Positions 59,201 to 64,000 of a stretch of 64,000 nt of DNA are shown piece by piece. How positions within the stretch are numbered: position 1 is the first letter of the stretch; every line of letters begins with the position of its first letter. Made by a program: the position numbers. Location: NCBI RefSeq assembly GCF_058153355.1, contig NZ_JBLWLY010000002.1. The stretch is one strand, 5' to 3'. This stretch comes from a plasmid.

Positions 59201-62200
59201 GCTCCATTGTTGATTATAGACAGGTTATCTCCTGTGATAGCATTACCACCGTAGCCATCATAACCATAACCGTAAGCAGCACCTCCGTTGCCTCCAGCGA
59301 ACGTGCCCTTATTGATTACAGAGAGGCTGCTTCCTGTGATGGCATCACCTCCATTACCGCCATCACCCTCACCATAATTGTTACCTCCATTACCACCGGA
59401 AATAGTCCCTTTGTTGATTATGGGTAGATTGACTCCTGTGACGGCATCACCTCCATTCCCCCCATCACTATCACTATAACTATCGCCACCATGTCCACCT
59501 GAAATAATTTCTCCATTTATTATAAACAGATTGTCTCCTGTAACAGCCTCACCACCATCACCGTTATGGTCAGCACCGCTACCGCCGCTACCACCAAGAA
59601 TCATGCCTTGATTGATTATAGACAAGTCAGATCCGGTAATAGAGTCACCACCATTACCGCCACAACTATTACCATCATTATTATCACCAGCACCACCATG
59701 ACCTGCGCTAATCATAATATCAGAGTTAATCCGTAGCTTAGTTCTAGATGCATGAGAGGGGTTGGAAGAAGTTATATACCACGCATCCATTCCATCTTCA
59801 CCAGCTCCCAAGGGAGAAAGTCCATCAACAGGTGTTAATAATTTTTCATAATTGTCCTCTGAAAAATGAAGTTCTTGAGTACCCGAAAGAGGAATAGCAA
59901 AAGCTATTGGCCCCCCGAGCAACAGGGATGCACCAACAACAAAAGGAGAAAAAGACAATTTGCATGTTTTTTCCTTTACCGTAGGTAATTCTCCGGCCCC
60001 CCCCTGTGAACATTGGGTCATATTACAAAAAAATTTGTGAATTTGATTCATGCACTATATTATCAGTAAGTGGTTGATAAACCCCTAAAAAGATTCCGTT
60101 TTATCCGGAATAAAGGGACGATATATGCAAAAACATATTAAACAAAGCCTCAACCAAAACATGAGAGCTGTGTTATATATCAATGCAACGGGAGAAATTT
60201 ACCTGTGTCTTGCTTTGAAAAAAAGAGGGGGAAAGCTATATGTTCGATAATAAATTAATAATTTTACTATGATAGTCTGCTTCAGACCGCAACTTTTCAG
60301 TTCCTTCTGTACGCTTGCCCAAAGTTTAACCACTTTGTTTTTCTATACACCCAATGGTTCTATCTGCCCCTTGATGTTAATCCCCAAAGCCAATAACATG
60401 AATGTATTCATATCACAACTTTCCTACCAGACTCTCCAATGCAATAACTGCATAATTGTTTTTAGTGGAAATGTATCGTTTTCTTAAAGAGAAGAATAAT
60501 ATTCCATTTTATTATGTTCCCAATTTAATTATATTAATATATATTGGCATTAATAGGAAAATACATCAGGAGAAATCAAATGCAGACATCAAACATAACT
60601 AACCATGAAAGAAATGACTCATCATGGATGTCAACGGTCAAATCAACTACAGAAGTAAGTTGGAATAAATTGAGTTTTTGTGACGTTTTACTGAAAATAA
60701 TAACTTTCGGCATATATTCTCCACACGAAACTCTAGCCGAAAAATATAGCGAAAAAAAACTAATGGATAGTTTCTCACCATCACTATCACAAGATAAAAT
60801 GGACGGAGAGTTTGCCCACGCAAACATAGATGGCATTTCAATACGGCTATGCCTTAACAAAGGCATATGTTCGGTTTTTTATCTTGATGGAGATAAAATA
60901 CAATCCACTCAACTTTCATCAAAAGAATATAATAACTTGTTAAGTTCACTCCCCCCCAAACAATTCAACTTAGGAAAAGTACATACTATTACAGCTCCGG
61001 TATCAGGGAATTTTAAAACTCACAAGCCTGCACCAGAAGTTATTGAAACAGCCATTAATTGCTGTACATCGATAATACCAAACGATGATTACTTCCCCGT
61101 TAAAGACACTGATTTTAATAGTGTTTGGCATGATATTTACAGAGATATTCGAGCATCTGACAGCAATAGTACAAAAATATATTTCAACAATATTGAAATA
61201 CCACTAAAATTAATTGCAGATCTAATTAATGAGTTAGGAATTAATGAATTCATTGATAGCAAAAAAGAGCTTCAAATGCTAAGTTACAACCAAGTAAATA
61301 AAATAATCAATTCAAACTTCCCCCAACAAGACCTATGTTTTCAAACAGAAAAACTTTTGTTTACTTCACTCTTTCAAGACCCTGCATTTATATCTGCACT
61401 AACATCTGCATTCTGGCAATCTCTTCACATCACGTCTTCCTCTGTGGAACACATATATGCCCAAATTATGTCCGAAAACATAGAAAACAGGCTTAATTTC
61501 ATGCCTGAACAACGAGTTATTAACAATTGTGGACATATTATAAAAATCAACGCAGTTGTCCCTAAAAATGACACTGCAATCTCTGCCTCTGGGGGGAGGG
61601 CTTACGAAGTTAGCTCATCAATATTACCATCGCACATAACATGTAATGGTGTTGGTATTAATAAAATAGAAACAAGCTATCACGTTCATGCTGGAACACT
61701 TCCAAGCAGTGAAGGGCTTCGCAATGCTATCCCTCCAGAAAGTCGTCAAGTATCATTTGCCATCATATCTCCTGATGTTTAAGCCAATATTATATTGGCT
61801 GCCAGACTGTAAAAAAACGTTCTTCAGAACAGCTCTATAAACTATTAAACCAAAGCTAAAAGGATGGGGACCAATAGAATCTCAGCCCATCCTTTTTATA
61901 TCATTATGAACCGCCCCGGAAATCCTGGAGACTAAACTCCCTGAGAAAGAGGTAAACAGGATGACTAAAAATACACGTTTTTCCCCTGAAGTCCGTCAAC
62001 GGGCAGTTCGTATGGTTCTGGAAAGTCAGGGCGAATATGACTCACAATGGGCAGCAATTTGTTCCATTGCCCCAAAGATTGGCTGTATACCGGAGACTCT
62101 GCGTGTCTGGGTACGCCAGCATGAGCGGGATACCGGGGGCGGTGAGGTGGGCTCACCACCGCTGAACGTCAGCGTCTGAAAGAGCCGGAACGTGAAAATC

Positions 62201-64000
62201 GTGAACTGCGCCGCAGTAACGATATCCTTCGCCTGGCTTCCGCTTATTTTGCAAAGGCGGAGTTCGACCGCCTCTGGAAAAAATAATGCCACTGCTGGAT
62301 AAGCTGCGTGAGCAGTACGGGGTCGGACCGGTATGCAGTGAACTGCATATTGCCCCGTCAACGTATTACCACTGTCAGCAACAGCGACATCATCATGATA
62401 AACGCAGTGCCCGTGCGCAGCGCGATGACTGGCTGAAGAAAGAGATACTGCGCGTATACGATGAGAATCATCAGGTATACGCTGTGCGTAAAGTCTGGCA
62501 TCAGTTGTTACGGGAAGGTATCAGAGTGGCCAGATGCACTGTGGCACGTCTCATGGCGGTTATGGGGCTTGCCGGTGTTCTCCGGGGTAAAAAGGTCCAC
62601 ACTACCGTCAGCCGGAAAGCCGTTGCCGCAGGCGACCGCGTAAACCGTCATCAAGGCAATGTGCCGCGTACTCCGGGTGGCCCGCAGCGGCTGGTATACG
62701 TGGTGTCAGCGGCGGACAAGGATAAACACACGTCAGCAGTTCCGTCAGCACTGCGACAGCGTTGTCCGCAAGGCTTTTACCCAGTCCAGCGTTACGGTGC
62801 CCCACGCCTGACGGATGAACTGTGTGCTCTGGTTACCACTTTAACGTAAAAACCGTGGCAGCCAGTCTGCGCCGTCAGGAACTGAGCGCAAAAGCCTCCC
62901 AGAAGTTCAGCCCGATCAGTTACCGTGCACACGGCCTGCCTGTGTCAGAAAATCTGCTGACGCAGGATTTTTACGCCAGTGGCCCGAACCAGAAGTGGGC
63001 GGGAGACATCACGTACTATTACAGCTCACCGACTGCGGGGAAACACGGGGCGCTGGGTTATTGAAGGTGACCTGTCCAGCTACTTCGACACAGTACATCA
63101 CCGGCTGCTGATGAAAGCCGTCTGCCGCAGGATCAGTGATGCACGTTTTATGAGACTGCTGTGGAAAACGCCGTGTTGATGTTGGTCTCTTCCGGGCGGT
63201 CAGTGAAAGTATGCCACAGGGCGGTGTGATCTCGCCGTTGCTGTCGAACATCATACTGAATGAGTTCGACCAGTATCTGAATAAACGCTACCTGAGTGGA
63301 AAAGCCAGAAAGGATCGCTGGTACTGGAATCACAGTATCCAGCGAGGCCGAAGTACTGCTGTCAAAGAAAACTGGCAATGGAAACCTGCCGTTGCTTACT
63401 GTTGCTATGCCGATGACTGTGTGCCACGAAGGCGCGTCCTGGGGACGTGAGTCCCTGTGCAGCCATGCGGCACAAGAGATGAGGGAAGGCCCCTCGGTGT
63501 CGGCGTGCAGGCGCAGGCACCAAACCATCCACTGCTGCTGCATTTAAGAGATGTGGTGGTGAGCGAGATGGGAAAAGGTCGGACGTGAGCCGATCAGGTA
63601 TGGTTCGAAGAGACGAACGAAAGTGAACCGCTGATGATGTGTCGAAAGCGTATAGATGATGTCAAAACAATGGTGGAGTCGTTCCTGTGGGATATGTTTA
63701 CTGCCTGCGCGGCATCCGGCATAAAAGCGGCGTGAAGTCGATTCAGGCTCTTGTGGGGAACGTGGACCTGTCACCCCGACGTGAAGGGAGAAGCGCAAGT
63801 GGAAGCCCCATGAGCACCAGAGTACCAATGCGGGGTACAGGGACGGAGCACCAAGCGATTGCGCAGTAAACATGCTTGACAACTTAATTGGGGCCCCCTC
63901 TTCCTTTTATGGTGTAATTGTTTGATTGAATACTTCCGGGGATTTCAGTATGAAATGAAGTATATTTAATATACTTTACAAAAAGTTTGTATTAGTGGAA

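Follow-up and report, generated by a model that had tools for sequence, protein, structure and literature searches.

What series of events assembled the patchwork of mobile-element fragments that lies just downstream of virA on this plasmid? The window, that is the whole 64,000-nucleotide stretch of contig NZ_JBLWLY010000002.1 analysed here, contains the mosaic at positions 61907-63850, all on the + strand. The original prediction described its left part as a chimera of IS629-like and IS3-like sequences, made by deletion or recombination rather than by simple insertion. Each feature of that prediction was recovered at its given position or a few bases from it, and its interpretation is supported in part. 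Remnants of four mobile elements, two of them insertion sequences and the other two group II introns, form an inert, layered pile-up here; the distance to virA, which lies upstream on this pINV-type invasion plasmid, is ~125 bp. The mosaic is an already known, ordinary relic and no new kind of element. PGAP (NCBI) labels it as three consecutive pseudogenes, and the catalogue of Leclercq & Cordaux (2012; PMC3522654) includes both intron pieces, as 'E.c.I4-tr4' (63018-63418) and 'S.s.F1' (63419-63850; 90% similarity to P.l.I2). None of the four fragments retains a capacity for transposition or splicing, because orfA is frameshifted, the DDE (rve) domain and the right inverted repeat are gone, there is no ribozyme core, and the reverse transcriptase (RT) is incomplete. 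The best explanation, with a probability of about 85%, is that the region arose through site-specific retrohoming, which occurred twice, and through two or more illegitimate deletions.

The leftmost fragment belongs to an IS629/IS1203-type element of the IS3 family, and comprises nt 1-744 of ~1310 (61907-62650, collinear with two references). The left inverted repeat begins at 61907, where the original prediction had placed an IS629-type terminus. The fragment shares 96.8% identity with nt 1-744 of an IS629-like copy on the E. coli chromosome, without rearrangement, and there is no difference in the first 60 nt, which contain the terminal inverted repeat. The identity to the O157 IS629/IS1203 copy (1310 bp, named 'IS3-like element IS1203 family transposase' by PGAP) is 94.8%, and this copy also has the same first 50 nt compared. 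Isoforms in ISfinder are defined by roughly 95% or more DNA identity. The fragment resembles IS629/IS1203 in its left inverted repeat and in the same layout of orfA, orfB, A-rich slippery region and ALIL; whereas only 744 of the 1310 nt are present here, the right 566 nt being lost together with the DDE domain and right repeat that they carry.

Another difference is a 1-bp deletion that cuts orfA (61961-62179; Pfam HTH_Tnp_1, E = 1.5e-7) to 72 aa. One T is absent between 62145 and 62146, giving GGTGA-GGTGGG in place of the GGTGATGGTGGG of both references, in agreement with the frameshift proposed to follow DTGGG. The undamaged frame would reach a TAA at ~62277-62279. The ALIL pseudoknot, a stimulator of programmed -1 frameshifting in this IS group, is intact at 62241-62357 (Rfam RF01497, full length 1-117, 120.8 bits, E = 2.9e-32); related records carry the ALIL annotation too. 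The overlap of orfA and orfB covers 62277-62288, and only the first ~121 codons of the IS629-type orfB remain (62286-62650; Pfam HTH_21, E = 4.4e-17), its open frame (62286-62849) running into the next fragment in the wrong frame. Pfam matched only HTH_Tnp_1 and HTH_21 and found no rve domain, and PGAP labels the piece 'IS3 family transposase; frameshifted; missing C-terminus'.

The second fragment is an internal piece of an IS3-like element (62651-63017, IS3 nt 405-776; nt 403-776 when a shared CA is counted). The 369 bp at 62649-63017 are collinear with IS3 nt 403-776 of E. coli at 91.4% identity (E = 3e-152), close to the internal piece of ~400 bp that had been expected. Like IS3, the piece codes for the HTH_21 part at the N-terminus of OrfB and reaches the first catalytic-motif codons, GDITY (HTH_21, E = 1.6e-8 on the frame-repaired translation). 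Unlike IS3, it is a 369-bp fragment whose frame is broken by two deletions, one of 4 bp at 62786/62787 and one of 1 bp at 62832/62833, and neither IS3 terminus is present, the match being limited to nt 403-776. PGAP labels it 'IS3 family transposase; missing N- and C-terminus'. Judged from the alignment, an identity of 91% marks a relative of IS3, not IS3 itself. The 3' end of the piece, ...GGAGACATCACGTACT, lies inside the codons of the GDITY motif.

The third fragment begins at 63018, where the RT sequence was predicted to follow. It is an internal, frameshifted part of an RT gene that belongs to an E.c.I4-family group II intron (63018-63418; Pfam RVT_1, E = 1.1e-10, and nucleotide alignments), and spans intron nt ~1100 to ~1511-1516, covering the RT domains up to YADD. 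The identity is 90% to the intron of pVirR1 and 83% to the E.c.I4 copy of IAI39 (nt 1100-1516). An assignment of the pVirR1 intron to EcI5 was rejected: E.c.I5 is placed in O157 strains (PMC3522654), and the homing site argues for the E.c.I4 family. In the window, IS3 nt 776 is the last base of the 5' exon, and the 3' exon of the pVirR1 intron begins at IS3 nt 777, right after domain V/VI; the 3' exon of the PK8277 copy likewise maps to IS3 nt 777. Moreover, the 5' exons of IAI39 and of IS911A in K-12 end in ...GGnGAyrTnACnTAyN/GTGTGCC (the slash marks the boundary), in the same codon phase as ...GGAGACATCACGTACT in the window. These coincidences are read directly from the alignments, and on sequence grounds IS3 nt 776/777 is the site to which the E.c.I4 family homes. 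By the same comparison, the IS3 piece does not have a random right end, a point that the original prediction missed. Since nt 776/777 is the homing site, the right bound of the IS3 piece is due to intron retrohoming, and the left bound alone to deletion. The claim of an origin other than simple insertion thus held for the left bound; whereas the right bound is an intron insertion junction.

The E.c.I4-family fragment shares the codon-phase insertion site with the copies in IS911A (K-12), IAI39, pVirR1 and PK8277. It differs from them in that only ~400 nt of the RT gene are left, the 5' 1099 nt and the ribozyme domains being missing, and its host is an IS3-like element, outside the host set reported for the family (IS629, IS911, ISEc16 and ISEc31; PMC3522654). 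Intron nt 1-1099 and those beyond 1516 are gone, and the sole intron match of Rfam is to the second intron. A point against is that the 5' exon in the window ends in CT, versus TA in the four reference exons. A crude EBS/IBS test by exact matching found no complement to the exon hexamers in any reference intron; in the window copy the exon-binding region is deleted. The E.c.I4 fragment in prophage CP4-6 of K-12 lies at the same homing site, with an intact 5' end and IS5 cutting its 3' side; the intact 5' end ruled it out as a second 5'-truncated example.

The fourth fragment is the first ~430 nt, the region of ribozyme domain I, of a class D group II intron similar to P.l.I2 of Photorhabdus luminescens (63419-63850; Rfam and reference alignments). 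Its 5' end, GTGTGCCACGAAGG, is intact at 63419, lies 1 nt beyond the YADD codons in the RT gene of the first intron, and aligns with the 5' ends of two reference introns. Rfam group-II-D1D4-2 matched at 63481-63599 (116.9 bits). The GUGUG 5' end and the D1D4-2 ribozyme domain are likenesses to P.l.I2 and class D; the difference is that the fragment, limited to the first ~430 nt and having neither ORF nor domain V/VI, allows no splicing or movement. The similarity to the references fades at 63842-63849, ~100 nt before their ORFs start, so the second intron's own RT ORF and domain V/VI are absent, and AT-rich unrelated DNA follows from ~63880.

The insertion of an intron inside another group II intron resembles the twintrons of bacteria and Methanosarcina, and such nested insertions were reviewed by Zimmerly & Semper (2015); P.l.I1 is also listed as 'truncated by P.l.I2' (PMC3522654). 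The 5' end GTGTGCCACGA, preceded by YADD and 1 nt, also occurs on a plasmid of Bradyrhizobium; there the outer RT frame continues beyond the inner intron. The same junction string was found at no fewer than 120 loci, at least, in bacteria and archaea, and a D1D4-2 ribozyme domain lies 60-90 nt downstream of it in nine of the ten loci checked. These data might, tentatively, place the second intron in a cosmopolitan lineage (5' GTGYGCCACGA, D1D4-2-type domain I) that homes to the YADD codons of other introns' RT genes, although we regard this as rather doubtful. If it is true, these introns would act as parasites of other retroelements, although retroelements themselves, and would inactivate them in archaea and across bacterial phyla; and if their site specificity and breadth are also undescribed, the pINV relic would be a decayed enterobacterial case of a general 'intron-in-intron' hyperparasitism. 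For specialists, one small point of interest would be this instance of an intron lineage whose homing target is the YADD codons in the RT genes of other introns.

The switch between the two insertion sequences is placed at 62650/62651, 5 nt from the position near 62645 estimated before. The IS629 match stops at 62650 and the IS3 match begins at 62649, so that a CA dinucleotide (62649-62650; IS629 nt 743-744, IS3 nt 403-404) is shared in the three-way alignment. With a probe spanning this junction, thousands of plasmid records matched query 1-201 alone or 200-401 alone; because these one-half matches stop at query 200-201, they place the breakpoint independently. The junction was crossed by 117 of the 3370 matching plasmid records, and the crossing records among the matches listed are all Shigella or E. 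coli invasion-type plasmids, matched over the full length. All junctions and indels are common to the plasmids of S. sonnei, S. flexneri, S. boydii, S. dysenteriae and EIEC, the copies differing by substitutions only. The whole arrangement is fixed in the 117 pINV-type plasmids, and no intermediate forms of the locus were found in the collections searched.

Several explanations might account for this join. Both breakpoints are internal (IS629 nt 744 and IS3 nt 403), hence it is not an insertion junction. Homologous or homeologous recombination of neighbouring IS3-family copies at equivalent transposase positions, giving a hybrid element, would suit two pieces of the same family, in the same orientation, and both in the orfB region. 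However, at the protein level the two orfB products share only 30% identity, and the join is ~325 nt out of register: the equivalent of IS629 nt 744 is IS3 nt ~728, not nt 403, and aa ~121 of the IS629 OrfB meets aa ~14 of the IS3 OrfB. Only 2 nt are shared at the join, which is out of frame, and the N-terminal HTH_21 region occurs twice in tandem with no DDE domain, that is, it was duplicated and not exchanged. Such recombination is therefore very improbable, and the comparison indicates an illegitimate deletion join; of the two origins first proposed, deletion is the one that stands. Less probable still is that the 1.1-kb segment is a single unnamed, naturally chimeric and mobile IS3-family element. 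In its favour, the segment begins with a proper left inverted repeat and carries both an orfA and the intact frameshift pseudoknot, but the right inverted repeat and the DDE domain are absent, orfA is frameshifted, and the crossing records are restricted as described above, the listed non-spanning records matching one half only. The alignments to the IS629-like element and IS3 also revealed no single IS3-family element collinear with the whole segment. Misassembly is common in IS-rich plasmids, and chimeric junctions could in principle be assembly or sequencing artefacts from repeated IS sequences; yet the same junctions and indels recur in 117 plasmids from EIEC and four Shigella species that were assembled independently, complete genomes included, which leaves this account a negligible chance. 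Chance matches are excluded by the E-values.

The loss of the first ~1100 nt of the E.c.I4-family intron leaves a closer choice. Abortive cDNA synthesis is the simplest account of this 5' truncation, as we infer from the 5' exon, which is complete to its last base. A passage of Tourasse & Kolsto (2008; PMC2504315), citing Dai & Zimmerly, gives incomplete reverse transcription as an explanation for truncated bacterial group II introns, and genomic rearrangement as a cause of intron fragmentation. The latter would favour a full-length insertion followed by a later deletion of the first ~1100 nt, with the remaining history unchanged, and the region clearly saw deletions, both at the IS629-IS3 join and at the right end of the second intron. 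But the left endpoint of such a deletion must hit the exon-intron boundary exactly, one position among hundreds, and there is no microhomology to steer it there; a later deletion is thus unlikely, although far less so than the alternatives for the IS629-IS3 join. The lack of microhomology at the boundary fits homology-free joining; however, it is not diagnostic.

In the preferred history, an IS3-like element would have been present at the start. An E.c.I4-family intron would then have retrohomed into its orfB at the canonical site, in the GD(I/V)TY codons at IS3 nt 776/777. The first ~1100 intron nt might have been lost through abortive cDNA synthesis during target-primed reverse transcription, the cDNA being attached to the complete 5' exon without homology. 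The P.l.I2-like class D intron would have retrohomed subsequently into the RT gene of the first intron, 1 nt after YADD. One deletion would have taken all sequence rightward of ~nt 430 in the second intron, namely the rest of both introns and IS3 from nt 777 onward. Finally, an illegitimate join with 2 nt of microhomology would have placed nt 744 of the IS629-type element next to IS3-like nt 403. We infer this order from one fixed end state.

The biological weight of the locus is small: it is a fixed, inert trace of past mobile-element traffic on the invasion plasmid of Shigella and EIEC. Specialists may also find interest in what may be a natural 5'-truncated group II intron joined at an exact exon end, that is, a LINE-like product of abortive retrohoming in an enterobacterium. 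The practical use is in annotation, where the three neighbouring 'pseudogenes' resolve into four nested element fragments whose breakpoints are exact. Moreover, the junctions are present in all sampled pINV lineages, and could thus be used as markers of common ancestry.

The surroundings were also compared. The parts lost from the mosaic, namely IS3 beyond nt 776, IS629 beyond nt 744 and what is missing of both introns, were not found in the window, and no further IS629 sequence occurs elsewhere in its 64 kb. The right flank in related plasmids has no IS3 or E.c.I4 remainder, and a separate, complete and inverted IS629 copy lies ~2.7 kb away. The window includes an IS3-like piece (85%) at 47278-47560, unrelated to the mosaic, and a separate intron at ~51.3-55.5 kb. 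A terminator consensus scan did not pick up the + strand hairpin downstream of virA, the loop of which is longer than the limit of the scan.

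The window contains icsA (56743-60051, minus strand) and virA (60544-61782, plus strand), and is therefore part of the Shigella/EIEC invasion plasmid (pINV). The segment at 61907-63850 is better described as a stack with four layers: an IS629 remnant, an IS3-like remnant, an E.c.I4-family intron remnant and a P.l.I2-like intron remnant. The original prediction of deletion rather than insertion holds for the IS629-IS3 join, but not for the whole segment; the boundaries (junctions A to D, left to right) are two site-specific retrohoming junctions and two illegitimate deletions, in an order of events that we infer. 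The 2.2 kb around the mosaic shares 99.5-99.6% identity with the plasmids of S. sonnei, S. boydii and enteroinvasive E. coli, and 99.5% with pWR501 (S. flexneri 5a). The compared pINV copies of this region differ by substitutions only, and the mosaic is fixed in every pINV lineage sampled (117 plasmid records, four Shigella species and EIEC). It is without coding or mobility potential. PGAP annotates three pseudogenes here, and a 2012 catalogue already lists the two intron fragments (PMC3522654). The mosaic is ordinary and already known. The names of elements and introns were taken from annotated GenBank copies and one paper.

Collinear alignment showed that 61907-62650 corresponds to nt 1-744 of IS629-type elements; a copy on an E. 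coli chromosome is 96.8% identical, and the 1310-bp O157 copy (PGAP label IS1203 family) 94.8%. The left inverted repeat has its first base exactly at 61907. The frameshift predicted in orfA was also found: the window reads GGTGA-GGTGGG vs GGTGATGGTGGG in both references, and since one T is missing between 62145 and 62146, the OrfA product stops at 72 aa. The ALIL frameshift pseudoknot (62241-62357) is intact. Downstream of the virA stop codon, a hairpin followed by a T-run (GGATGGGG...CCCATCC, 61860-61898) lies 9 nt before the left repeat of IS629 and looks like the virA terminator; a consensus terminator scan of the plus strand did not report it, because the loop is longer than the scan allows.

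The chimeric junction is real. The IS629 match ends at 62650, and 62649-63017 corresponds to IS3 nt 403-776 (91.4% identity, with two deletions relative to IS3, of 4 bp and 1 bp); the switch, expected near 62645, is thereby placed at 62650/62651. A junction-spanning probe (62450-62850) matched 3370 plasmid records, and the junction was spanned in 117 of them; among the matches listed, records without it matched query 1-201 only or 200-401 only. Junction A joins IS629 nt 744 to IS3 nt 403, and it is not a transposition junction because both breakpoints are internal to their elements. An equal crossover was ruled out: in the protein alignment of the two OrfBs (30% identity), IS629 nt 744 (aa ~121) is equivalent to IS3 aa ~122 (nt ~728), not to nt 403 (aa ~14). 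The only sequence common to both elements at the junction is CA, and the IS3 portion is out of frame past it. Pfam detected the HTH_21 domain in both pieces and no rve/DDE domain anywhere in them. Junction A is an illegitimate deletion join. A further IS3-like fragment (47278-47560, minus strand; IS3 nt 212-494, 85% identity) is a different copy rather than the missing left part, because nt 403-494 are present in both.

Junction B joins IS3 nt 776 to an E.c.I4-family RT fragment (63018-63424, BLAST), which is 90% identical to the intron of pVirR1 and 83% to E.c.I4 of E. coli IAI39. A 405-bp fragment 'E.c.I4-tr4' was listed here in pCP301 and the S. sonnei, S. boydii and S. dysenteriae pINV; Table S2 of that paper gives class A for E.c.I4 and D for P.l.I2 (PMC3522654). 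In pVirR1, intron domain V/VI is directly followed by DNA that matches IS3 starting at nt 777, and the 3' exon in strain PK8277 maps to the same IS3 position. The 5' exons in IAI39 and K-12 IS911A end with ...GGnGAyrTnACnTAyN directly before GTGTGCC, and the window 5' exon (...GGAGACATCACGTACT) has the same codon phase. On its right, the IS3 fragment therefore ends at an authentic intron 5'-exon boundary. The RT fragment begins at intron nt ~1094-1100, so that the first ~1100 nt are missing, and no microhomology was found at the junction. This structure is most economically read as a 5'-truncated product of retrohoming. Because reverse transcription proceeds from the intron 3' end toward the 5' end, as established for target-primed reverse transcription (Zimmerly & Semper 2015), an aborted cDNA joined to a 5' exon precisely cut at the insertion site would leave a truncated intron at the exact exon end, as observed. 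Incomplete reverse transcription has been published as one explanation of truncated bacterial introns (Tourasse & Kolsto 2008, PMC2504315). A later deletion could possibly have removed the 5' part, but it would have to start by chance at the exon-intron boundary, which requires a coincidence. The intron of pVirR1, a cnf2/hly plasmid, has hybrid flanks (1880-1907 and 4171-4652 of the locus): the 5' exon exactly matches the final 22 nt of the K-12 IS911A 5' exon; the 3' exon is 89% IS3-like. These flanks show that an E.c.I4-family intron once resided in an IS3-like element, and suggest recombination between intron copies in different IS elements.

Uninterrupted relatives read TATGCCGATGA(C/T)TTCGTGCTT where the window at junction C has TATGCCGATGACT followed by GTGTGCCACGAAGG. 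The 5' part of a class D-type intron starts at 63419, and Rfam places D1D4-2 in it at 63481-63599; this fragment was catalogued as 'S.s.F1' (432 bp, with 90% similarity to Photorhabdus P.l.I2; PMC3522654). A Bradyrhizobium plasmid (2990-3030 and 4800-4830 of its locus) has the same nested arrangement, TACGCCGACGACG followed by GTGCGCCACGA, and its outer RT frame picks up again (..VICHC..) past the inner intron. A scan for TAYGCNGAYGAYNGTGYGCCACGA, with one genome per species, matched at least 120 stretches; those listed include Planctomycetota, Bacillota, Actinomycetota, Proteobacteria and archaea. Translated upstream sequence ends in YADD in all matches listed, and in ...(V/A)RYADD in most. 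Among 10 loci checked, D1D4-2 lies 60-90 nt downstream in nine, and outer-intron ribozyme domains were often seen upstream. Junction C is therefore a canonical case of one intron inserting at the catalytic-site codons in the RT gene of another. Such nesting of group II introns is already known in general (Zimmerly & Semper 2015), and P.l.I1 was noted as 'truncated by P.l.I2' (PMC3522654). The lineage with the 5' end GTGYGCCACGA is located exactly 1 nt past the YADD codons in RT genes of other introns. Its junction string is present at 63404-63440 and at least 120 loci in many bacterial phyla and archaea, with outer RT genes of visibly different types. No explicit statement of this site and of the breadth of the lineage was found in the literature consulted.

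At junction D, the likeness to full-length relatives of the second intron stops at 63842-63849, about 100 nt short of their ORF start point, and gives way to AT-rich, unrelated DNA. A single deletion here can explain why the rest of both introns and IS3 nt 777 onward are missing; these parts were found neither elsewhere in the window nor in the 2.7 kb to its right in related plasmids. In related pINV plasmids, a complete, inverted IS629 lies about 2.7 kb past the point equivalent to the right end of the window (7420-8725 of one such locus); the IS629 remnant and the complete copy therefore bracket the intron scraps, along with a small hypothetical gene and more transposase fragments.

A separate class D-like group II intron lies at 51328-52588 (5' ribozyme region and the N-terminal 274 aa of the RT ORF) and 55075-55518 (C-terminal part, about 2.5 kb on), and was apparently split by an insertion. 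It overlaps 'S.s.F2' and 'E.c.I3-tr4' of Leclercq & Cordaux (PMC3522654) by coordinate arithmetic from pCP301; its 5' region is its own, with only 73% identity to 63419-63880. About 90 nt at 11204-11291 resemble group II intron domain I (77-81% similarity) and are probably another intron scrap.
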